Notes: generated by a model from the letters alone, not told the origin. A stretch of 64,000 bases of DNA from Clostridium sp. 28_17 (GCA_001916065.1 MNRS01000019.1:31948-95947); one strand, 5' to 3'. Counted from the stretch's first letter, positions 13,050-63,937 are shown. Numbers and translations: made by a program.

Positions 13050-13284
13050 AAGTAGATTTATATGAAACAGTATATTGCTAAAAGAAGTCAGAAAAGTAAT
13101 AAAAAAAGGTGAAGTTGGAGTTACATTTATGAGCAAAAATAAAGTAAACAATAACTGATAGAAAGTACTTTTGAATTAAATCTTATTGGCTGATATCATA
13201 GAAAAATAAGCAATTCTACTAACAGTCGATTGCTAAAAAAGATATAAAGTGATAAGATACAAAAAATTCAAAGGAGGTTTTAAA

Positions 13285-15171
13285 ATGGACAACGAAAAAT
13301 TTGGAAAATTCATAAAAAAATTAAGAAAAGAAAAAGGAATAACACAAAAAGAATTAGGAGAAAAATTAAATATTACAGATAAAGCAATATCCAAATGGGA
13401 AAGAGGATTAAGTTTTCCAGATATAACAATGCTAAATATATTAGCAGAATTTTTTGAAATTGATGTATCAGAATTATTAAATGGAGAAAAAGGAGCAAAA
13501 AAAGATATTGATATAGATAAAGAAATTTCTGAAGCAATAGAAAAATATAAAAATATTGAAGAAAAAAGAAAAAAGAAAATTAACAAAACAAAGAAAACAA
13601 TAGGAGTAATATCAACTATTATATTAATTATTTCATTATTAATACAAATTGCATATTTATTTGTATTGAAAAGACATAATTATGAGTATGTAATTGATAT
13701 TTTAGAATACATAATTAATCAAATAATTATAATTTCAGCTACAATGAGTTTGATTTTATTAACTAAAAAAGAAAAAATTAAGAATATAATTATATATATT
13801 CTCTGTATAATGTTTTCTGTAATTAATATTTCATTTATGTGTAACAATGGATTCAAAAATAAATGTATAATAAGTTTTTCAAATGATTTTTCAAATGAAC
13901 TTGTTGTTAAAACAAATAAAAATACAGGAGCAATAAAAATATATAGAAACCAAAAATTCTTTTTATTTGCAAAAGAAAAAGAGCAACTAGATTACGAATT
14001 AGATGGAAAAATAAAAAAACAATGGCTAACAAATGATGTATGTGGAATAACTTATAAAGATAAAAATGGTATATTACAAGAATATGTTGTTACATATGGA
14101 GATAGAGGCAATGGAATATCATATTATTATGTAACATCAGCATTAATAGGCGATTGGCAAGTATTCACACAATATGGTAATCCGACTCAAATGTTAGTTG
14201 ATAGTAAAGGTATAACAATAAAAAAGAATGAAAAAAGTGAACTTTTTACCTATGAAAATTGCAAACAATATGGAACAACAGCATTGGTATTATATAAAAA
14301 TGATATACCTAAATATATAATTGCATTAGATAAAAATTGTGAAATTGATGAAAAAACATATATTATAAAAAAAGGTGGAACAATAATATTATCTGAAATT
14401 TCAATGGATAAAACAATTTCTGAATCATTATATTGTATGACATTTAAAGATGAAAAAGATTTAGGTAATTATAGTGTTGTAAGTGTTGCAAAAGATAGTT
14501 ATAAAATTCAAGATGGAATAATGTATATAAGTTTTGATGGAAAAAATACAGTAGAAGTACCTGGAGATTTTTCAAAAATGGTAGATAGTTATAATGAATA
14601 CAATTATCAAATATCAAACGAAAAAACAATTTTTTATTATATAAAAGATTCAAAAAGATATTTAGTTTATTCTGATGATATGGGAAATAATTGGACTACT
14701 GTAGAGATAGAAAATGAGTCTTCAATACAAAATATACATTTTATAAATTCAAATATAGGATTTATGCTTAAATTTGAAGATGTTGCAATGGGAATAGCAT
14801 TTGGTAAAATTAGCAAAACTGTTGATGGAGGAAAAACTTGGAAAGATATATATTTTGGAATGGGAGATGAAAAGAAAATATTTAAGACATCTAGTCAAAT
14901 AAAATTTATTAGTGAAAATATTGGCTTTTTAACAATGCCTTCTGCTGGAGGAGAAACTTCTGAAATGTATATTACAAAAGATGGAGGAAATAGTTTTAAT
15001 AAATTAGAAATTATAAATAGTGATATTTATGATTATTATAATTTGCCAACATTTGAAGATGGAGTATTAAGTATAAAAATAACACAAGGTTCAGACGGAG
15101 ATTATAATGGTGGGGATTATAAGGTCTATTATTCAAAAGACTATGGTGATAGTTGGAGCTTGGAAAAATGA
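13285..15171 (+). CDS. Membrane-anchored XRE-family HTH regulator with extracytoplasmic BNR/Asp-box (Ycf48-like) domain
   Basis: N-terminal HTH (GITQKELGEKLNITDKAISKWERG), three TM segments, C-terminal repeats DDMGNNWT, DGGKTW, DGGNSF, DYGDSW. Confidence 0.65.
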   Translation: MDNEKFGKFIKKLRKEKGITQKELGEKLNITDKAISKWERGLSFPDITMLNILAEFFEIDVSELLNGEKGAKKDIDIDKEISEAIEKYKNIEEKRKKKINKTKKTIGVISTIILIISLLIQIAYLFVLKRHNYEYVIDILEYIINQIIIISATMSLILLTKKEKIKNIIIYILCIMFSVINISFMCNNGFKNKCIISFSNDFSNELVVKTNKNTGAIKIYRNQKFFLFAKEKEQLDYELDGKIKKQWLTNDVCGITYKDKNGILQEYVVTYGDRGNGISYYYVTSALIGDWQVFTQYGNPTQMLVDSKGITIKKNEKSELFTYENCKQYGTTALVLYKNDIPKYIIALDKNCEIDEKTYIIKKGGTIILSEISMDKTISESLYCMTFKDEKDLGNYSVVSVAKDSYKIQDGIMYISFDGKNTVEVPGDFSKMVDSYNEYNYQISNEKTIFYYIKDSKRYLVYSDDMGNNWTTVEIENESSIQNIHFINSNIGFMLKFEDVAMGIAFGKISKTVDGGKTWKDIYFGMGDEKKIFKTSSQIKFISENIGFLTMPSAGGETSEMYITKDGGNSFNKLEIINSDIYDYYNLPTFEDGVLSIKITQGSDGDYNGGDYKVYYSKDYGDSWSLEK

Positions 15172-26198: not shown

Positions 26199-27866
26199 AT
26201 GTATGAAAGAAGTGCAATAGTATTAGAAAAAAATTTTAACACAATATTAGGATTTGACAAAAAACCTAATTTAAAAACAATATATAAAGATTACAAAGAA
26301 ATAACAGAAGAAATACAAAAGTACCAATCTATACTTGAAGAAGAAGATAAAGTAATAAATGAATTTGATGAAATAGCAAACGAAATAAGAAAAATTCAGC
26401 AAGAACAAAAAAAATTATATAAATCTAACATAAAATTAGAAGAAGACAGAAACCAACTATTTGACAACCTAGAAGATGAACCAGAAGTTATAGAAAAAAA
26501 ATTACTAAAAATAGAAACCACTGTTTCAGAAAACAATCAAAAACTAGAAGAAATAAGAGAAAAATATATAAAAACAATAACAGAATTTGAACAAAAACAA
26601 CAAGACAGAAATGCATGCTCAAAAGACAAAAGAGCAGAAGAAAAGAAACATCTACAATTAATTGAAAAAATAACAAATGATTTTAAAGAAATAGATAAAG
26701 AAATGGTTAAAAATATCAAAACATTTATAAGCACAGACGAAGAAGCAGTAAAAACAAATATAATAGAAATAATGATAGAAAATGGTAAAGACGAAAGAAT
26801 ACCATTCAATAAAGCAATAATAGAAAATGCCGTAAACACAAGAATCACAATAGCCAGAAGAGAAGCAGAATGCTATATGGCTATATTTGAAAAAACAAGA
26901 AGGTTATTAACAGAACTAAATAATGACGACATAAAAATGGACAAATACAATAAAACATTACGTGATGTCAGTGCAAAACTAGCATTTTTAAAAGCCATGA
27001 AATTATATATAGTAAGTTTCTTAGACAATGAAAGAATGTCAACAATAAATGGAATCAAGATTCACAATAAATTAATGGAAGAGGCTTGCGAAAATTTCAC
27101 TGCAGATATGGAACAAGTTAGAAAATTATACGAATTAATCATACGTGAAATTACTAATAAATCAAGCAAAAAAGCATACAAAGAATTGTATAACAAAGAA
27201 TATCTAAAAAATATAGAAGACAAAGAAAAAAACTTTGAAGAAGAAGTAAACAATATAAGAGTAAATGCCGGAGCAATAATAAACTCAAACTATTGGAGAA
27301 TCGAAGAAATAAAAAACATTTATGATGTATTTCAAAATGAAGTAACACAAAAATTTGGAAAAGACTTATCAGAATTCCAACCTCAAGAAGAAAACGAAGA
27401 AGAAATAGAGGAAAAAGCAGAAATAGAAGATGACATCTTTAAAACAAAAATTTCAGACGAAGACACAGAATATGTAGAAGAATTTGAATTTGATGACGAC
27501 GATGAATATAACGAAGCAGACAATGAAAAAGAATACTACGAAGATGAAGAAGAATATGAAGATGACGAAGAATACGAAGCTGACTATGAAGAAGACGAAG
27601 AATATGAAGACGAATATGACGACAATTTTGAAGATGATGATCAATATGAAGATGACGGAGAAGAATTTGATGACGAGTACGAGGACGAATATGAAGATGA
27701 TGAAGACGACTATGATGATGAGTATGAAGACGAGTATGATGACGAAGACGAAAATGACGAAGATGATGAAAAAATAGAAAAAACAGATTCAAACAAAAAA
27801 GAAAATACAAAATCAAATAGCAAGAAAGGAATATTTAACAAATTCTTTAAAGACAAAAGAAGTTAA
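26199..27866 (+). CDS. Coiled-coil protein with about 130-aa poly-acidic D/E/Y tail
   Basis: Heptad-rich N-terminal 400 aa; C-terminus EFEFDDDDEYNEADNEKEYYEDEEEYEDDEEYEADYEEDEEYEDEYDD... Confidence 0.6.
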   Translation: MYERSAIVLEKNFNTILGFDKKPNLKTIYKDYKEITEEIQKYQSILEEEDKVINEFDEIANEIRKIQQEQKKLYKSNIKLEEDRNQLFDNLEDEPEVIEKKLLKIETTVSENNQKLEEIREKYIKTITEFEQKQQDRNACSKDKRAEEKKHLQLIEKITNDFKEIDKEMVKNIKTFISTDEEAVKTNIIEIMIENGKDERIPFNKAIIENAVNTRITIARREAECYMAIFEKTRRLLTELNNDDIKMDKYNKTLRDVSAKLAFLKAMKLYIVSFLDNERMSTINGIKIHNKLMEEACENFTADMEQVRKLYELIIREITNKSSKKAYKELYNKEYLKNIEDKEKNFEEEVNNIRVNAGAIINSNYWRIEEIKNIYDVFQNEVTQKFGKDLSEFQPQEENEEEIEEKAEIEDDIFKTKISDEDTEYVEEFEFDDDDEYNEADNEKEYYEDEEEYEDDEEYEADYEEDEEYEDEYDDNFEDDDQYEDDGEEFDDEYEDEYEDDEDDYDDEYEDEYDDEDENDEDDEKIEKTDSNKKENTKSNSKKGIFNKFFKDKRS

Positions 27867-31816: not shown

Positions 31817-32239
31817 TTATTCATCATCATCATTATTGTTATTACCTTTACGTCCAGTATTAGTAAACTGCATAGAATAATACCAAACAACTGCAATAAT
31901 AGCAATAGCAGCAACACCTAATATAAGCCAAGTCCAAGCAGTTTGAGACATTCCTGCAACAGTGGTAGTATCTGTACTTGTTCGTGCAGCATTATATCCA
32001 GTACCCATAGTAGAATCAGTACGGACAGCATCCATTTTATTTTCTGCTCCACTTGTAATATTTTTTGATACATTTGAAGCACCAAGTGCAGCATTTTCTA
32101 CAGTATTTTCAACACCACCAACAAAATTACGTATATTATTTGTGGCACTTTTCATTACATCATCTGTTGCTTGACAGATTGTGAATGAAAATATGGTGAA
32201 TAATATAATTGATAAAGATACTAAAATTCTTTTGTTCAT
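31817..32239 (-). CDS. Secreted/membrane-anchored Ala/Thr-rich protein
   Basis: Signal peptide, low-complexity middle, C-terminal TM helix and acidic tail. Confidence 0.45.
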   Translation of the reverse strand: MNKRILVSLSIILFTIFSFTICQATDDVMKSATNNIRNFVGGVENTVENAALGASNVSKNITSGAENKMDAVRTDSTMGTGYNAARTSTDTTTVAGMSQTAWTWLILGVAAIAIIAVVWYYSMQFTNTGRKGNNNNDDDE

Positions 32240-32422: not shown

Positions 32423-32451
32423 TTGAACTACAGTTTTGGTTATGGTAAAAT
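32423..32451 (+). promoter_or_regulatory. Sigma-70-like promoter (TTGAAC-17-TAAAAT) with about 190-nt leader
   Basis: Hexamers at 32423-32428 and 32446-32451. Confidence 0.4.
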
Positions 32452-32644
32452 GAAAATATAATACGACAAAATTCGCATTTAATGTTGTATAGACTAAATG
32501 CATATTTAGAAAAAATACAAATGAAAAAATATTTTAAATAACAGTGTTTTAATTTAAAATATTAGAGAGGAGGAAATTATAAGGATTAAAAAATTTTTAA
32601 ATAGAAACAATTAGAAAAATTAAAAGTAGGAGGATTGTATAATA

Positions 32645-34276
32645 ATGTTAAGGAAAAAGAATAAAGGAATAACACTTGTTGCATTAGTAGTGACTATAGT
32701 AGTTTTGCTTATTTTGGCAGGGATTTCAATTGCCGCATTAACAAATACTGGAATATTTCAAAAAGCAAAAGATGCGAAACAAAAAAGTGAAGAAGCAACT
32801 CAAAATGAAGAAAGTCTTTTGGCCGAATATGAGGTAGAAATTGATAAATATACATCTAATGATAGATGGGACGGAAAAGTAAATAAACCGGAATTAATGA
32901 CAGGGATGATGGCAATAAAATTTACAGAACCAACAGGAAATACAGAAGACACAAAAGGAAAAGAAGAAAAAGTAAGTGATAGCAGTAAAAATGATTGGTA
33001 TAATTATAGTGAAAAGAAATGGGCAAATGCAAAAACAAATGATGGAAGTATGTGGGTATGGATACCAAGATATGCATACAAAATAAATAAAAGTAATCAA
33101 ACTTTTGATGTGGTATTTTTAGTAGGAACAACAGATAGTTACTATGATAAAGATGGAAAATTGCAAACAGCAAAAAGACAAACATCAGAAACAGATATCC
33201 CAGATGCAACAAAAGAATATGTAGTACATCCAGCTTTTACAAATGAAAGTAACATTGGCTATGTCAATGGAGGATGGAAAAAAGAATTAACAGGTATTTG
33301 GGTTTCAAAATTTGAAGCAGGATTTGTTGATAAAGATACATTTAATGCAAATAAAGATATATATAATAGTTCAGTAAATTATACACAAGTTACCGGATAT
33401 ACACCGGCAAATAAAGATGAAGATGCAAGAAATTATTTAAATGGAATATATGGTTCTAATGCAACAAAAATAACATATCCAACATTTCAAGGTGGAAAAT
33501 ATTCAATGAATTATATAAATCATAGTGACGCATTCAGTATATCAAGAGCATTAACAGATAGTAATAATATATATAAATTAAGTAATAAAGAAACAGATAG
33601 CCATTTAATAAAAAACAGTGAATGGGGGGCAGTAGTATATTTAGGACAAAGTCAATATGGATTAAATGGAACAAATATATGTATAAATAATTTAAATACA
33701 AATAATAGTGAAGAGTACGTATATGCAAAAACAGGATATGCGTCAAAAAATGGTAATGATTCTGAAGCGACGAATTCAACCAATGGTGTATGGAAATGGA
33801 ATGAAAAAGGTGGAACGGCGGCAAGTTGCACAGGAACAATATATGGCATTTATGACATGTCAGGAGGAACATGGGAAAGATCAGCGGCAATTGTTAATAA
33901 TGGTAATGATAGTGGAAATCTTAATACTTATGGAAAAGCAATAATGAATGCCTTAAATAATGGAAAAAGCTCTGAATATGTAACCGTATATCCAACTGGT
34001 GAATCCAAAGGACAATCTTTAGATGATGCAAGTAAATCTAATTATGCAGCAAATACAAAAATATATGGAGATGCAATACGCGAAACTTCAACAGCTGGCT
34101 TGGGTCAAACATCATGGCATGATGACTACTCTTCCTTCGTTGGAGCTCACGGTCCGTTTTTCGTACGCAGTGGCTTTTGTTGGTATACCAGCGGTGTCGG
34201 TTTGTTCTGTTTCGATCGTTATGTTGGTGATAGCAGTTACTATTATGGGTTCCGCTCAGTGCTGGTCGCTCAGTAA
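32645..34276 (+). CDS. Pilin-like N-terminus fused to FGE-sulfatase (SUMF1/EgtB/PvdO-like) domain protein
   Basis: N-term KGITLVALVVTIVVLLILAGISIAAL resembles prepilin methylation motif (no Glu5); C-term GIYDMSGGTWE, VRSG, GFRSV match FGE-domain motifs (GLYDMSGNVWEW, RGGS, GFRC); last 65 codons GC-rich. Confidence 0.6.
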   Translation: MLRKKNKGITLVALVVTIVVLLILAGISIAALTNTGIFQKAKDAKQKSEEATQNEESLLAEYEVEIDKYTSNDRWDGKVNKPELMTGMMAIKFTEPTGNTEDTKGKEEKVSDSSKNDWYNYSEKKWANAKTNDGSMWVWIPRYAYKINKSNQTFDVVFLVGTTDSYYDKDGKLQTAKRQTSETDIPDATKEYVVHPAFTNESNIGYVNGGWKKELTGIWVSKFEAGFVDKDTFNANKDIYNSSVNYTQVTGYTPANKDEDARNYLNGIYGSNATKITYPTFQGGKYSMNYINHSDAFSISRALTDSNNIYKLSNKETDSHLIKNSEWGAVVYLGQSQYGLNGTNICINNLNTNNSEEYVYAKTGYASKNGNDSEATNSTNGVWKWNEKGGTAASCTGTIYGIYDMSGGTWERSAAIVNNGNDSGNLNTYGKAIMNALNNGKSSEYVTVYPTGESKGQSLDDASKSNYAANTKIYGDAIRETSTAGLGQTSWHDDYSSFVGAHGPFFVRSGFCWYTSGVGLFCFDRYVGDSSYYYGFRSVLVAQ

Positions 34277-34360
34277 TATTTTTTATACTCTACAAATACT
34301 TCGAGTATTTAAATAGAGTGTTAAAAATATAACTAATTAGAATAAAAGTATATAGGAAGA

Positions 34361-35505
34361 TTGTATATAATAATGAAAAAGAAAAGTAAGGGTATAACAC
34401 TTGTAGCACTGGTAATTACAATAATTTTGCTTTTAATTCTTTCAGGAATTTCAATTTCCGCATTAACAAATACTGGAATATTTCAAAAAGCAAAAGATGC
34501 AAAACAAGCAAGCGAAAATGCAGAAAAAAACAAGAAGAAACATTAGATAGTTATGAAAAAGAATTAAATAAATATACATCTGACGAATTAACAATAGACA
34601 ATACAGGAGCAGTATTAAGTAAAAACAACAACATTGAATTACATGATAAAAATGGAAACAAAGTAGTGGTACCAGCTGGATTTAAAGTGGTTAAAACAGA
34701 TAATTTAACAGTTGAAAAAGGAATAGTTGTAGAAGATAAAAAAGGTAACCAATATGTTTGGATACCATGTACTACAGAGGATTCTAAATCACAATTGCAA
34801 TTTAAAAGAAAAGAATGGGATGTTGAAGTAGATGGTACTGATAATAGTAGAGCGTCAAAAGATGAATTGACATTAACATGTGAAGAAAATTATAGCGAAA
34901 ATGGATTAACTTATGCAGTCGTCAATGAGATAGTTGCACAAGTAAAAGCAGAAAAAGAAAGTGTACGCAAAAATGGAGGATATTATATAGGAAGATATGA
35001 AGTTGGTGGAGCTGTTGGAGCCGAAGTTATACAAGCAAATCAAACGCCACTAACAGACATTAACTGGAGCACTGCTTATGGAATAGCAACAGGGATTGGC
35101 GATGGAGTTGGAGCAACAACGCACCTTTGTTCTAGTTACGCTTGGGATACAGCAATTAATTTTATACAAAATAATGGATTTCCAAATTATGCAAAAGTAA
35201 AAGAAGATAGTTACAATGAAAACTGGTATGATAAAAGTGTAAAAGATTTGCTAGGTAATATAATTAAAGTAGCAAATAATGCTACTAGACTTTCAACAGG
35301 AGAAACAACTTCAAAATGCAATATTTATGATATGGGTGGAAATGTTGCAGAATTCACAACAGAAGTAATGCCAAATACTAGTGAACCTGTGGTAGTTCGT
35401 GGCGGCCATTATAATACTAATGGCTTAGCAGGCCGACGCCTTGATTATAGCACTTCAATTGCTTATGACTATGTTGGATTTCGTGTTACTCTATTTCTAA
35501 ATTAG
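34361..35505 (+). pseudogene. Paralogous pilin-like/FGE-domain gene split by frameshift at A7 tract
   Basis: ORF 34361-34546 (pilin-like N-term) and ORF from 34666 (NIYDMGGNVAEF, VVRGGHY, VGFRV) are consecutive pieces; frames differ by one nt at A7 tract 34524-34530. Confidence 0.5.
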
Positions 35506-35512
35506 TAGGAAT

Positions 35513-35537
35513 GTCGACTTTTGTCGAAATTTTTTTC
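35513..35537 (+). terminator. Rho-independent terminator
   Basis: GTCGACTTTTGTCGA hairpin then T7. Confidence 0.45.
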
Positions 35538-35600
35538 TTGACAATTAACATAAAATTATGGTAATATATGGTCATGCAATTAATTAGACAATTGCATGAC
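35538..35600 (+). promoter_or_regulatory. Promoter (TTGACA-18-TAATAT) followed immediately by 11-bp perfect inverted repeat
   Basis: TTGACA 35538-35543, TAATAT 35562-35567, GTCATGCAATT-N8-AATTGCATGAC 35571-35600 then TAATTTT. Confidence 0.35.
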
Positions 35601-35884
35601 TAATTTTAAAAAAAAGATTTAATTCAAGCAACTTAGGGTAGACATAGAAACAGTTTAATCAAAATACTAAAATCAAAGGATTCCATAAAAAATCAAAAAA
35701 AGTAATAAAAAATAGTAAAGATTAAAATTCAAAAATAAATCTAAAAATATTCCAATATCATTAAATAAAACAAGAAGTGTTGATAACCCTAATACACTTA
35801 TATTTGCGTACAAATTTAATATATTAATAGTCTAAAATTGTCTCTTTTAATTGTAAATAATATGTTAAATTATACTAAAAAGTA

Positions 35885-35913
35885 TTGCCAAAGTAAAAAT
35901 AATTTAGTATAAT
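35885..35913 (+). promoter_or_regulatory. Sigma-70-like promoter TTGCCA-17-TATAAT
   Basis: Hexamers 35885-35890 and 35908-35913 upstream of Rpn gene. Confidence 0.4.
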
Positions 35914-35931
35914 TAAGAAAGGAAGAAATAA

Positions 35932-36823
35932 ATGGCACAAAAAACAACAAAAATACCAAGATTACCACTAACAGATGACTATATATTTAAAAGAGTATTT
36001 GCATTTGAAGGTAATGAAAGTGTTTTAAAGGATTTATTGGAGGCAATTTTAAGAAAAAATATTAAAAACGTAACAATAAAAAATCCAGAAATAATTCCAT
36101 ACGAAAGAGAAGATAAAAGAGGCCTTTTAGATATCAAAGCAGAAACAGATGATGGAACTGTTTTAGATATTGAGATGCAAATGGAAGACAAGAAAAATAT
36201 AGAAGAAAGAGGAACACTATATTTAGCAAATATGATAACAAGTCAATTACAAGTAGGAGATGATTATACAACTTTAAAAAAGAGTATTGTAATATTCATA
36301 ACAAATTATAATTTTTTAAAACGAAACAGTTATCATAGTATTGGAAAAATAAAATTTGACAAAACATTAAAAGAAGAATATGTAGATATGGGGTATAAAA
36401 CAGAAGATGAAGAAGCATCAAAATATATAGAATTCCACTACATAGAACTACCAAAATATAAAAAGAAAACTCAATCAGAATTTACAAAACTAGACCAGTG
36501 GATGTGTGTATTCACAAATCGAAAGGGGGAGATGATGTTGGCTGAAAAAGAGAATAAAGAAATAAAAAAAGCAATGAATACATTAGATTATATAAGTTCT
36601 GATCCAAAAGAAAGAGAAAGACATAATTCAGTAATAATGGATGAATATAATAGACTTACAAGTGAACAAAACTTTTTTGAAGCTGGAAAAGAAGAACGGA
36701 AAAAGGAACGGAGTAATAGAAACCGCAAAAGAAATGTTGAAGAAAAAATTATCAATTGATTTAATATGTGAAATTACAAAACTATCAAAAGAAGAAGTCG
36801 AAAAGATAAAAGAATCAATATAA
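35932..36823 (+). pseudogene. Rpn-family recombination-promoting nuclease/putative transposase (YhgA-like), frameshifted near 3' end
   Basis: N-term LTDDYIFKRVFAFEGNESVLKDLLEAIL...LDIEMQ typical of PDDEXK_7/YhgA; C-terminal helix part (ETAKEMLKKKLSIDLICEITKLSKEEVEKI) lies in a different frame (36641-36823). Confidence 0.6.
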
Positions 36824-36883: not shown

Positions 36884-37240
36884 TTAACCCTTTAATCTAA
36901 TCAAAATAGCAATAGCCAAAAGAATCAAAAGAATACCAACACTAATCAAAATAATATTCAAAATATTAGTAATTCCCAAACCTGACTCAGTAGAATTAGT
37001 AGTTTTAACTGTAGCAGAAGAACTTAGACTAGAAGAATTCGTACTAGAAGAACTTCTAGAAGAATTTGACGCAGAAGAAGTTGAATTATCATCATCTTCA
37101 TCATCAGAAGAATTTGTGCTACTAGAAGTATTTTCAGTCAAATTTAAATCAACCGCCTTAACATATAAAAAATTAAAACTAACTAATAATATAGTAACAA
37201 ACATTAAAACCATTGCCAAAATTTTTTCCATTTTTGTCAT
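36884..37240 (-). CDS. Secreted Ser-rich protein with C-terminal membrane anchor
   Basis: Signal peptide, poly-Ser/Asp region, C-terminal TM. Confidence 0.45.
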   Translation of the reverse strand: MTKMEKILAMVLMFVTILLVSFNFLYVKAVDLNLTENTSSSTNSSDDEDDDNSTSSASNSSRSSSSTNSSSLSSSATVKTTNSTESGLGITNILNIILISVGILLILLAIAILIRLKG

Positions 37241-62405: not shown

Positions 62406-63470
62406 TTACTCTTCCTCGGTACTCCAGTCGAATTCTCCTGTAACTTTTTCATTGAACAGGTCGAAAGGCCAGTTATGCAGATATTCCTTTGATACTTCTC
62501 CAGATTCTCTGTCATAAACATAGCGCTGTTTCAACAGCTTGTCGTCCAAATCATAAGCCTCGAGGACGACTTTTTTTGCAGATGCAATCAGTTCAGCAGA
62601 GATACCATCATTGTCAGAATTGTCGAACATTCCTAACCAACAAGAACATTCTCTAACTTCTGTTGCAAGCTTTGGATTCGGCATAAGGTAAGCAGTGTAT
62701 TCATGCCAACCCTGGGAATAAATCTTCTTAAGTCTGCTATGTTTTCTCGGATCGAGATGTCCTGCAGACAAACCAGAAAGATATTCAATTCCCGTTTCAG
62801 GAGCAGTACACAGTACCTTTGCGACATTGCAGCAACCACTAGGCCAAATCAGATTCGTGTTCCCATCTTGGTACATAACAGAAAATTCTGAATCATCATC
62901 TGCAACCAGAGTGATTTTCTTGAATTCTCCTCCGAAACTCATACCGCCTGAATACCAAAGTTTATCACCAATACGATTGGCAATGCACTTTGGATCATGT
63001 GCCTGACGATAAGCCTCTGCCGCTGCTTCAGCTTCTTTTCTTGCAACATCTTCTGCACGAGCTTTACCAGCATCATCTAAAGGCAACATATCAAGATATT
63101 TGCTAATATCAGAACGCTTGATGATAAAGTAGTGTGCTCCAGACATAGAATAGTCAGGAATTACAATTTCATCGCGATAGTGAATCGGATAATCTCCTCC
63201 GGGAATATTGACCGGCTCCAATCCTGCCTCATGCAGTGCTCTCCGAAGGCGAGGCCAAAACTTAACATTGTTTCCAAGCTTTTTGCCCGAAATAACTTCT
63301 CTAGCTTGCCGAAGATGTAAAAAACCACCTTTGCAATACTCTCCAACGACATAAGCATCGCAGTTGAACTGATACTTCCCATTGTCTAACCGAGTTACAA
63401 GGACCTCAGCTGTTTCGCCAAGGATGTGCTTAATCGTTACCTGTGTGTTCTTTTTTATAGTCTTCATCAT
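62406..63470 (-). CDS. Hypothetical protein on a GC-rich (about 43-45%) island, likely horizontally acquired
   Basis: Sharp compositional shift vs about 27% background; AGGAGG RBS; start MMKTIKKNTQ; no motif recognised. Confidence 0.5.
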   Translation of the reverse strand: MMKTIKKNTQVTIKHILGETAEVLVTRLDNGKYQFNCDAYVVGEYCKGGFLHLRQAREVISGKKLGNNVKFWPRLRRALHEAGLEPVNIPGGDYPIHYRDEIVIPDYSMSGAHYFIIKRSDISKYLDMLPLDDAGKARAEDVARKEAEAAAEAYRQAHDPKCIANRIGDKLWYSGGMSFGGEFKKITLVADDDSEFSVMYQDGNTNLIWPSGCCNVAKVLCTAPETGIEYLSGLSAGHLDPRKHSRLKKIYSQGWHEYTAYLMPNPKLATEVRECSCWLGMFDNSDNDGISAELIASAKKVVLEAYDLDDKLLKQRYVYDRESGEVSKEYLHNWPFDLFNEKVTGEFDWSTEEE

Positions 63471-63937
63471 ATTGAAGTCCTCCTTATAAAATAGTATTTT
63501 ATTTGCCCAATGAAGTAACATTAAACTTAATCAAAGTTGTTAATAAACAAAATTTAATCAATGATAAGCTTAATTTTACAACACTTTGCATACTTTAATT
63601 ATACCAGATTTTATGTAAAATTTCAACAATATCATTCATTTATTTTTTTAATATAACCTATAAGAATTACTTATGACAAATTCTTTACAAATTGTTGCAC
63701 AAAATTTAATAAAACGATATAATAATATTGAATTATTGTAGATTAAAATAAGTTTCAAAGAAATGAGGGAATAAACATGGCTAATAATAAACCTTTAAAG
63801 GGCTTTCAAGGAATATTTTTAGAAAAAGAGATAGAACAGCAGTTGATAGCTTTACAAAAAAATAGATAATAATGAAATGAAAAAGGTAATGAAATTTGGT
63901 TCTGAAAATTTTAAATATATAAAATTATATATAAAAA

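Follow-up and report, generated by a model that had tools for sequence, protein, structure and literature searches.

Diversity-generating retroelements (DGRs) of cellular genomes are documented with non-adjacent or remote targets, with a MutS-like accessory gene and with cassettes split over the two strands, and variable proteins of the FGE/C-type-lectin (CLec) type are already known as well; the DGR of Treponema also uses remote targets (PMC5758913). Here, we describe two tandem genes, ORF1 and ORF2, in a stretch of 64,000 nucleotides from Clostridium sp. 28_17, a human-gut metagenome-assembled genome (MAG) (GCA_001916065.1, MNRS01000019.1:31948-95947; the whole stretch is called the window, and positions are counted from its first letter). 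ORF1 (32645-34276, + strand) is intact and codes for 543 aa, in exact agreement with OKZ62462.1 of this MAG. In an initial annotation, the pair was read as tandem paralogs that fuse a prepilin-like segment lacking Glu5 to an FGE-sulfatase (SUMF1/EgtB/PvdO-type) domain. Our analysis indicates that both genes very probably encode variable proteins of a chromosomal DGR, i.e., targets in which a variable region (VR) is rewritten from a template repeat (TR).

The best structural match of ORF1 is TaqVP of Thermus (E 1.7e-6), and its sequence identity to the DGR variable proteins TaqVP and TvpA is about 13-15%. All of these carry the VR at the extreme C-terminus ending in ...GFR, have a template rich in AAY codons and lack the FGE catalytic residues. 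ORF1 differs from TaqVP and TvpA in its larger globular part (465 aa), in the MutS-like gene of its cassette, and in that the TR and the adjacent target lie opposite the strand of the reverse transcriptase (RT). Furthermore, TvpA is a lipoprotein, whereas ORF1 has a prepilin-like helix at its N-terminus. Mtd of Bordetella phage BPP-1 (PDB 1YU0) has in common with ORF1 the CLec fold, the C-terminal VR and adenine-specific mutagenic homing. However, Mtd forms the tip of a phage tail fibre and has its cassette adjacent to it, while ORF1 is chromosomal and stands in a housekeeping context without phage genes nearby.

With regard to display, DGR-diversified type V pilus tip adhesins are known from Bacteroides (PMC11601372). 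They resemble the present case in coming from a gut bacterium, in depending on a chromosomal DGR or one borne by an integrative and conjugative element, and in carrying the variable CLec domain on a pilus subunit or a relative of one. Type V pili are nevertheless made from lipoprotein precursors by strand exchange in diderm bacteria, whereas ORF1 has a type IV prepilin-like leader, belongs to Clostridia, and is only proposed to be incorporated into a pilus. Modular type IV pilins are known, numbering over 1,200 proteins in 264 architectures, and PilB and PilC of the monoderm Streptococcus sanguinis combine a class III-type N-terminus with a bulky vWA or lectin module that is proposed to be exposed at the tip (PMC8179133). 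PilB and PilC have Glu5, a complete small beta-sheet pilin module and a pil operon, while ORF1 has neither Glu5 nor a pilin head nor a pil operon and bears a DGR-diversified module. The GspK-type minor pseudopilins discussed in the same work are large, lack Glu5 and cap the filament tip (PMC8179133). GspK has kept the beta-sheet of pilins, with an alpha-domain inserted, and works in concert with GspI and GspJ, and no such partners were identified for ORF1. A survey from 2024 lists a GspG-type pilin domain among the rare VR-bearing domains (PMC11661182), and our literature search found no description of this Glu5-less prepilin-like family, of its motif strings, or of a DGR combined with prepilin signals.

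Two further groups bear a partial likeness to the pair. FGE (SUMF1), EgtB and OvoA belong to the same fold subclass (Foldseek E 2.5e-3 and weaker) and have the motifs YDMxGN, RGG and GFR in common with it, but the Pfam score of the pair is below the cut-off or absent, and the Cys pair is not conserved and falls in a DGR-variable region. The sugar-binding proteins of the Sulfolobus 'bindosome' are large and globular, carry a class III signal, and their assembly at the surface involves processing by a prepilin peptidase. These are static archaeal binders with a dedicated Bas system, whereas no homologous system is shown for ORF1; the NCBIfam BasB match to the pair is faint (E 0.002).

Template, cassette and recent change of the ORF1 variable region

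The 3' end of ORF1 stands out in composition, with an adenine fraction of 0.10-0.15 and a GC fraction of 0.43-0.53 at 34145-34264, as opposed to adenine fractions of 0.33-0.58, mostly above 0.4, in the remainder of the gene. Variability was assessed in an alignment of ORF1 with 47 database homologs at 74-93% identity (48 sequences in all). Nearly all columns with at least seven residue types are found at aa 502-534, with invariant columns in between, and the C-terminal pattern reads GAxxPFFxRGGxxWxxSxAGLFxFxRxxGxSxYxxGFRSVLVAQ. Such interleaving has the appearance of a DGR variable region on a CLec scaffold.

Ungapped scans of both strands of the window with VR segments of 157, 136 and 50 nt detected no TR at ≥50-60% identity. 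An expected template was built by setting A at all variable positions, and public metagenome contigs were scanned with it. Five loci matched, and TRs were found in four of them (L010-L013). The matching sequence in these four is non-coding, starts exactly at the onset of VR homology and is followed by different sequence, while VR-TR homology stops just past the ORF1 stop codon. The VR of ORF1 defined in this way spans 34125-34275 (+) and consists of a mutable part at 34134-34245 (+), which differs from the TR at adenines, and a constant 3' end at 34246-34275 (+), which resembles an initiation of mutagenic homing (IMH) site and is identical to the L013 TR over its 30 nt. Across the 151 nt, the L013 TR and the ORF1 VR differ at 19 of 38 adenine sites and at 3 of 113 other sites (p = 5.5e-11). 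The control comparison, between the TR of locus L026 and its own adjacent VR, gave differences at 14 of 39 adenine sites and at 0 of 112 others (p = 7.6e-10). Our results show that the ORF1 VR stands in an adenine-specific relationship to a TR, and this template has 22 mutable codons, ten of them AAY, which allow about 10^19.7 protein variants.

Not all members of the family are coupled to a template to the same degree. An ORF1-type paralog (L017 6342-7955) lies on the same scaffold as the L026 cassette, at a distance of about 180 kb. Its VR differs from the L026 TR at 23 of 39 adenine sites and at 24 of 112 other sites (p = 3.5e-5), and the 24 non-adenine differences imply that some paralogs are no current target. 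The VR of a target at L014 2327-2480 (-) is identical to the TR, i.e., it is in the unmutated state. Scanning genome contigs with an N-masked VR/TR pattern gave four matches, all of them VRs of other species and none near an RT. Scans of viral contigs with both patterns gave no match, and there is thus no sign of a phage-borne cassette.

Beside the TR in L010-L013 are genes for a 142-aa MutS domain I (MutS_I) protein, a 119-aa bAvd protein (81 bits) and a 370-aa RT (RVT_1, 67 bits), and the TR also adjoins a 541-aa target gene with the same N-terminus as ORF1. The same chromosomal cassette was seen at six more loci (L024-L029), where it is flanked by a class A penicillin-binding protein gene and a XerC-like integrase gene, and the assembly collection has the Avd gene indexed in 2460 blocks. 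The MutS-like, avd and RT genes occupy one strand and the TR and adjacent target the other (L013 6627-8870; L024-L029 9586-12090), with the TR and adjacent target converging on the 3' end of the RT gene. Due to this split-strand arrangement, at least two transcription units are needed.

The cassette in the MAG that holds ORF1 was identified by its Avd and MutS-like proteins, the RT being known from the metagenome loci beside the TR. The L013 Avd and MutS-like proteins are exactly OKZ63547.1 and OKZ63548.1 of Clostridium sp. 28_17, and they also equal MEI3435406/7 of the same-species assembly GCA_037069425.1, in which the ORF1 ortholog is MEI3435454, each on a 1.69-Mb contig. Judged from the accession numbers, cassette and ORF1 would be about 48 genes or 50 kb apart in that assembly. 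At such a distance the cassette would lie just outside the window, in keeping with the lack of RT, Avd and MutS-like homologs within it. ORF1 is thus a non-adjacent DGR target and not a member of a classical cassette.

The same genome (GCA_037069425.1, loci L002/L003) served for strain comparison. Over 2.1 kb (33787-35950) the window is identical to it save one indel and nine substitutions, and all nine fall at 34214-34245, on TR adenines in the 3' half of the VR. This is the pattern that a homing event with an internal 5' crossover would be expected to produce, and the alignment indicates that the ORF1 VR has been rewritten since divergence from a near-identical strain. Outside the VR, the differences of ORF1 from L002/L003 are gathered in three blocks (32792-32926, 33215-33430 and 33601-33640) between identical flanks, which suggests mosaic recombination between alleles or paralogs. 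The ortholog in this strain (L002/L003 10001-11633) is itself split into 443 and 105 aa by one extra T, at the window equivalent of about 33970, and its N-terminal piece is named 'type II secretion system protein' by NCBI.

A second array at another chromosomal site (L004/L005) has genes of 549, 391 and 550 aa with further VR variants, and OKZ61808.1 (P0116), a paralog from the same MAG as ORF1, has half of its VR in common with one of these variants. Taken together, these variants and the half-VR match imply that one retroelement serves several loci.

We propose that the MutS-like/bAvd/RT cassette and the TR reside elsewhere in the genome, outside the window. The TR would be transcribed and reverse-transcribed with random misincorporation opposite adenines, and the resulting cDNA would replace the VR at the 3' end of ORF1. 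Each replacement would recode up to 22 codons, drawing on the roughly 10^19.7 possible proteins, while the scaffold PFF.RGG..W..S.AGLF.F.R..G.S.Y..GFR would stay fixed.

Fold and possible display of the ORF1 protein

The globular region of ORF1 (32876-34273, +; aa 78-543) has an FGE-type CLec fold according to AlphaFold2 and Foldseek. The AlphaFold2 input held 68 homologs at 35-93% identity, of which 60 were 50%-cluster representatives at 35-53%, and the resulting model reached a pLDDT of 89.1 and a pTM of 0.86; a shallow alignment of 119 sequences at 74-93% identity gave a useless model (pLDDT 32.6). In the Foldseek search against PDB, the top match was the DGR variable protein TaqVP of Thermus aquaticus (5VF4, E 1.7e-6, probability 1.00), followed by FGEs (E 2.5e-3 to 1e-2), PorK and Bordetella phage Mtd (E 7e-3), and the viral library returned FGE-like and tail-fibre proteins. 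Sequence profiles run against PDB detected the pilin-like N-terminus alone and missed the CLec domain, and a PHROGs search gave nothing informative. The predicted model supports the FGE-type fold assignment of the initial annotation as right. The accompanying option of an enzyme does not hold, as the catalytic region is hypervariable.

Profile and motif evidence for the FGE domain is mixed. Pfam FGE-sulfatase (PF03781) does not match ORF1 and scores 20.2-21.9 bits for ORF2 against a cut-off of 23.3, while within the two families it matches 48 of 121 members on the ORF2 side and 10 of 69 diverse ones on the ORF1 side; the profile matches that were expected for N_methyl and FGE-sulfatase thus exist below threshold, and none reaches the gathering score. 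The FGE motifs noted earlier are present in both genes, as GIYDMSGG, FVRSG and GFR in ORF1 and as NIYDMGG, VVRGG and GFR in ORF2, where N instead of G in the first place departs from the quoted G(I/L)YDMxG. Retention of the FGE metal-binding residues was not borne out. There is no conserved Cys or His in aa 495-543 of ORF1 in the 47-homolog alignment, and Cys512 and Cys522 of this copy are DGR-variable codons for which the template has TAT (Tyr). The copper-binding Cys pair of FGE presumably maps to the hypervariable region of ORF1. We therefore rejected an FGE-type enzyme, since residues of the catalytic region are hypervariable, conserved Cys and His are lacking and the TR codes for Tyr where this copy has Cys. 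The 'FGE hallmarks' are instead explained as the constant scaffold of a CLec-type variable region, and the last ~45 residues of the lectin domain are proposed to form the ligand-binding surface.

The N-terminal module of ORF1 (32645-32863, +; aa 1-73) comprises a leader, a hydrophobic helix and an amphipathic helix that extends to about residue 70. ORF1 begins MLRKKNKGITLVALVVTIVVLLILAGISIAALTNTGIFQKAKDAKQ, in which the basic leader MLRKKNKG ends in Gly and is followed by ITLVALVVTIVVLLILAGISIAAL. The hydrophobic stretch of at least 22 residues begins with ITLVA, i.e., with Ala at +5. The 48-sequence alignment shows no variation at G8, I9, T10 and L11; with 119 sequences, I9-L11 still do not vary and G8 is conserved to at least 90%. 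N_methyl (PF07963) scores 20.1 bits for ORF1 and 16.4 for ORF2 (gathering cut-off 21.2), and at E ≤ 0.01 it matches 103 of 121 ORF2-family and 20 of 69 diverse ORF1-family members. The best sequence match in PDB is the Geobacter PilA-N pilin (9egp), at E 0.12 with the ORF1-family profile and 0.018 with the ORF2-family profile. The claim of a prepilin-like segment without Glu5 is well founded in view of the PilA-N match and the frequency of N_methyl in the ORF2 family, and the N-termini and the two ribosome-binding site (RBS) strings quoted for the pair are present as quoted. In the AlphaFold model, predicted helices at 11-31 and 37-70 (pLDDT 57-75) run directly into the FGE-type domain. The protein plan would accordingly be a prepilin-type N-terminal segment, no pilin head, and a large CLec domain of the FGE-sulfatase type.

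The family defined by ORF1 is large. Among 8000 scored candidates, 7772 fell at E ≤ 1e-3, and a library of 1.8 billion proteins contains 17,936 cluster representatives at 50% identity. Existing annotation calls such proteins 'hypothetical' or 'type II secretion system protein'.

A prepilin peptidase had been suggested as something to look for in the genome, and one was found. The A24 peptidase of L004 (Peptidase_A24, 65.8 bits, with both Asp motifs) matches OKZ61629.1 of Clostridium sp. 28_17 exactly and is encoded 4-5 kb away from the second array. The window contains no Peptidase_A24, and no assembly ATPase, platform protein or Glu5-bearing major pilin was detected in the array neighbourhoods or in the 10 window ORFs scanned. 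From its sequence, the ORF1 protein is likely exported, with the N-terminal helix retaining it at the cell surface. Cleavage by the A24 peptidase of this genome, followed by placement at a type IV filament or pseudopilus tip, has a little under an even chance in our judgement, and simple membrane anchoring would have just the same; the two are about equally likely. With filament or anchor alike, the model predicts that the variable lectin domain would face outward on a helical stalk of ~40 residues, and a role as variable adhesin or receptor is likely. A more far-reaching interpretation, which we regard as speculative and rather doubtful, is that these proteins form a new class of head-less, Glu5-less 'modular pilins' of uncultured gut Clostridia, in which an alpha-1 helix is fused to a DGR-diversified lectin, cleaved by the A24 peptidase and placed at the tip of a filament or pseudopilus.

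The second gene and competing explanations

ORF2 opens at 34373 with MKKKSKGITLVALVITIILLLILSGISISALTNTGIFQKAKDAKQ, and no N-termini of this kind occur in the window apart from those of ORF1 and ORF2. The two proteins are 68% identical over residues 1-72. Past residue ~72 they have only short motifs in common (BLASTP E 0.25-0.29), and hhalign of the two families aligns columns 1-73 and nothing beyond. The description as tandem paralogs is thus confined to the N-terminal module and, distantly, the fold; the rest cannot be aligned, and ORF2 is a pseudogene. It had been taken for a single open reading frame, but a frameshift in a run of seven A (34524-34530) divides it into a 5' fragment of 57 codons plus stop (34373-34546, +), which is a truncated pilin-like N-module, and a 3' part of 279 codons in the -1 frame (34531-35505, +) with the remainder of the stalk and the FGE-type CLec domain. 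Orthologs have eight A or GAAAAAGAAC at this site, and one A added to the run yields AEKKQEETLDSYEKELNKYTS, the exact reading of P0313 and L021/L022. The ORF2 family is large and consists mostly of single in-frame ORFs of 373-391 aa (~377 aa when intact).

Three lesions are found among related strains. The window, L002 and L003 have the A7 frameshift; L021/L022 have A8, yet carry two nonsense codons and a deletion of ~190 nt; and in L001 there is a stop codon together with a deletion that extends into the adjacent PDDEXK_2 gene. Sequencing error was rejected as the cause of the frameshift, as the same A7 allele is present in three independent assemblies.

The C-terminal pattern of the ORF2 family, RGGxYxxxxPAGxRxDxxTSxAxSxxGLRATLFLK, again shows interleaved hypervariability and defines a second type of VR, of which ORF2 keeps a relic at 35398-35493 (+). 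This assignment draws on the family pattern and on a comparison with contig L023, which holds an all-Asn, template-like (TR2-like) version of the ORF2-type VR. L023 is a short contig in which an ORF2-type gene is joined to the template-like sequence (1180-1299) and the 3' flank is different; it is probably an assembly chimera of VR and TR. The L004 ortholog of ORF2 differs from the TR2-like sequence at 23 of 37 adenine sites and at 2 of 59 other sites, with one inserted base (p = 1.4e-10). For ORF2 of the window the figures are 17 of 37 and 15 of 59 (p = 0.047), and its VR is identical across all five same-lineage loci. Our results show ORF2 as a pseudogene, and its sequence further suggests a decayed target of a second DGR family with its own TR, whose VR is frozen and drifting.

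ORFs that consist of the N-module alone (72-79 aa; P0330, P0294, P0274, P0277; L018 8001-9036, L015 8001-8240) were seen on more than 100 contigs each. In L018, a 242-aa CLec-like domain comes after a 73-aa ORF in a frame shifted by one, and the split thus separates the two modules where they meet, as it does in ORF2. Such splits may reflect recurrent decay or phase variation, or else a two-gene pilin of the Geobacter PilA-N/PilA-C kind.

Several observations weigh against reading the pair as DGR targets with pilin-like display. The window itself contains no TR and no RT, Avd or MutS-like homolog, the L013 TR and the ORF1 VR differ at three non-adenine positions, and the TR used comes from same-species metagenome contigs outside the window's own assembly. 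All Pfam and NCBIfam matches of the pair are sub-threshold, and the AlphaFold model predicts no separate pilin head domain. Glu5, which polymerising type IV pilins require, is replaced by Ala in both window proteins, and across 90 diverse family representatives position +5 is A in 62, V in 12, S in 7, I in 4, T in 3, M in 1 and E in 1. Finally, a scan of the 10 largest unassigned ORFs of the window revealed no pilus ATPase, with about half of the window ORFs covered. The three mismatches and the outside origin of the TR would also suit a fossil VR that was diversified in the past and is addressed by no TR in the genome now, and the apparently decoupled L017 paralog is a precedent for it. This is unlikely, however, given the nine differences confined to adenine sites from a strain otherwise identical over 2.1 kb save one indel, the 30-nt IMH-like end identical to the L013 TR, and the identical Avd and MutS-like genes in the same MAG. 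A retroelement could also be dispensed with altogether if the genes were two functional tandem paralogs whose product, an enzyme of the FGE fold (SUMF1/EgtB/PvdO-like) or a lectin, is static and displayed on a type IV pilus. The fold, the sub-threshold FGE-sulfatase and N_methyl matches and the prepilin peptidase in the genome agree with such an arrangement, but we give it almost no weight, since the region of the FGE Cys pair is hypervariable and without conserved Cys or His, the TR codes for Tyr at Cys, TR and VR are related in an adenine-specific manner, and ORF2 is frameshifted and decays independently in sister strains.

The most serious alternative accepts the DGR and questions the pilin. 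The N-terminus could be an uncleaved signal-anchor or a Sec signal cut by signal peptidase I (near ISIA/AL), with no type IV filament involved, and we consider this a strong contender, with a chance not far short of even. It draws on the Ala at +5 and its non-acidic character in 89 of 90 representatives, on the sub-cut-off N_methyl score and the model without a pilin head, on the absence of pilus assembly genes from the scanned part of the window and from the surroundings of the arrays, and on the small residues at -3/-1 (S-I-A, S-I-S) past the hydrophobic stretch. On the other side, the first ~70 residues are the best conserved part (68%) of paralogs that are otherwise unalignable, and such conservation is usual in pilin alpha-1 helices and unusual in signal peptides. 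In addition, the G-(I/V)-T-L motif is invariant, the hydrophobic stretch has at least 22 residues, the closest solved sequence is a pilin, and an A24 peptidase with both Asp motifs is encoded near one array. As for ORF2, its break lies in a homopolymer that fits an X_XXY_YYZ heptamer, both A7 and A8 alleles exist in the population, and other paralogs are split at the module boundary (73-aa and 242-aa ORFs, L018), all of which would be compatible with a living gene read by programmed -1 frameshifting on A_AAA_AAC or switched by A7/A8 slipped-strand phase variation. We find this improbable, because most orthologs are single in-frame ORFs of 373-391 aa and the frameshift site is not conserved (A8 or GAAAAAGAAC), because the A8 strains L021/L022 have two nonsense codons and the ~190-nt deletion and L001 a stop and a large deletion, and because the VR is the same in five same-lineage loci and has drifted at non-adenine sites.

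Flanking elements, neighbourhood and significance

The pair is preceded by a candidate sigma-70-type promoter at 32423-32451 (+), with TTGAAC-17-TAAAAT and an extended -10 (TG-n-TAAAAT) matching 9 of 12 consensus positions. An untranslated leader of ~190 nt (32452-32644, +) follows and ends in the RBS AGGAGGATTGTATAATAATG. Promoter-like sites are not enriched in the region (27, compared with 24.4 ± 5 in shuffles). The promoter call is nevertheless plausible, as the paralog array at another chromosomal site (L004) has both hexamers and the TG conserved in its upstream region. The promoter of the initial annotation is thus supported by this conservation and not by site frequency. The leader is conserved within the species only, except for the promoter and RBS, and no Rfam match was found in it (E ≤ 1) or in the whole region. 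A riboswitch or attenuator was rejected, since no family matches and conservation is confined to promoter and RBS. A terminator-like hairpin at 35514-35537 (+), TCGACTTTTGTCGA followed by a T run, closes the pair.

DGR targets often bear a homing-enhancing hairpin directly after the VR. In ORF1, an imperfect inverted repeat of 63 nt (34272-34334, no strand assigned), with 21-nt arms and an inner 7-bp stem, lies directly 3' of the VR. It has a folding energy of -11 kcal/mol (z = -4.1 against shuffles), is AT-rich and not GC-rich, and is retained in L001. At this position the DGR-adjacent target carries another hairpin, and L004 lacks one. The repeat is a candidate homing-enhancing hairpin or cruciform; since its composition is AT-rich and some paralogs do without it, this role is no more than a suggestion.

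With a GC content of 27.7%, the chromosomal DNA of the window is AT-rich. Housekeeping genes surround the pair: upstream are those for RNase G, a MiaB-like radical-SAM enzyme and SmpB, and downstream, with a PDDEXK_2 transposase-family gene, those for BirA and FabH/D/G. The PD-(D/E)XK gene (PDDEXK_2, Rpn-like; 35932-36759, +; Pfam 152.9 bits) is recurrently found 3' of the array. It neighbours arrays also in L004/L005, at another chromosomal site, and in L021/L022 (L004 15169-15519; L021 7373-8251; L001 12080-12364), and in L001 a deletion fuses the ORF2 remnant to its middle. The gene may travel with the array or promote its rearrangement.

Two small proteins without significant family match flank the pair (31817-32239, -, 140 aa; 36884-37240, -, 118 aa). 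By reading, both seem to have a signal-like N-terminal segment, a Ser/Thr/Asn-rich middle and a hydrophobic C-terminal segment. Elsewhere in the window, a 555-aa protein without Pfam match (26199-27866), syntenic in L001-L003, has an extremely acidic tail rich in Asp, Glu and Tyr, and its Lys/Glu-rich N-terminal part looks coiled-coil-like. A 640-aa protein (13249-15171) shows the unusual pairing of an N-terminal HTH_3 domain with a C-terminal Sortilin/Vps10-type repeat region. A 371-aa ORF without Pfam match (62406-63521, -) occupies the most GC-rich 2-kb bin of the window (0.34 versus ~0.27) and is unrelated to the DGR reverse transcriptase.

It is in the human gut that DGRs reach their highest abundance, and detail on cellular, non-phage targets comes mainly from the type V pili of Bacteroides. 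The status of the ORF1 and ORF2 families as DGR targets accounts for their odd composition and hypervariable tails, and it corrects the enzyme-like reading of their FGE motifs. It also offers a testable case of how variable binding proteins are displayed in monoderm gut Clostridia, where one retroelement has several dispersed targets, and ORF2 illustrates the birth and death of such targets. DGR-driven variation of adhesins would reach type IV filaments as well, provided that the prepilin-like module indeed places the protein on a filament. Should the more doubtful class of modular pilins prove real, it would be the first link between DGRs and type IV filaments and would provide a programmable hypervariable pilus-tip adhesin, kept in multi-copy arrays and served by one retroelement.

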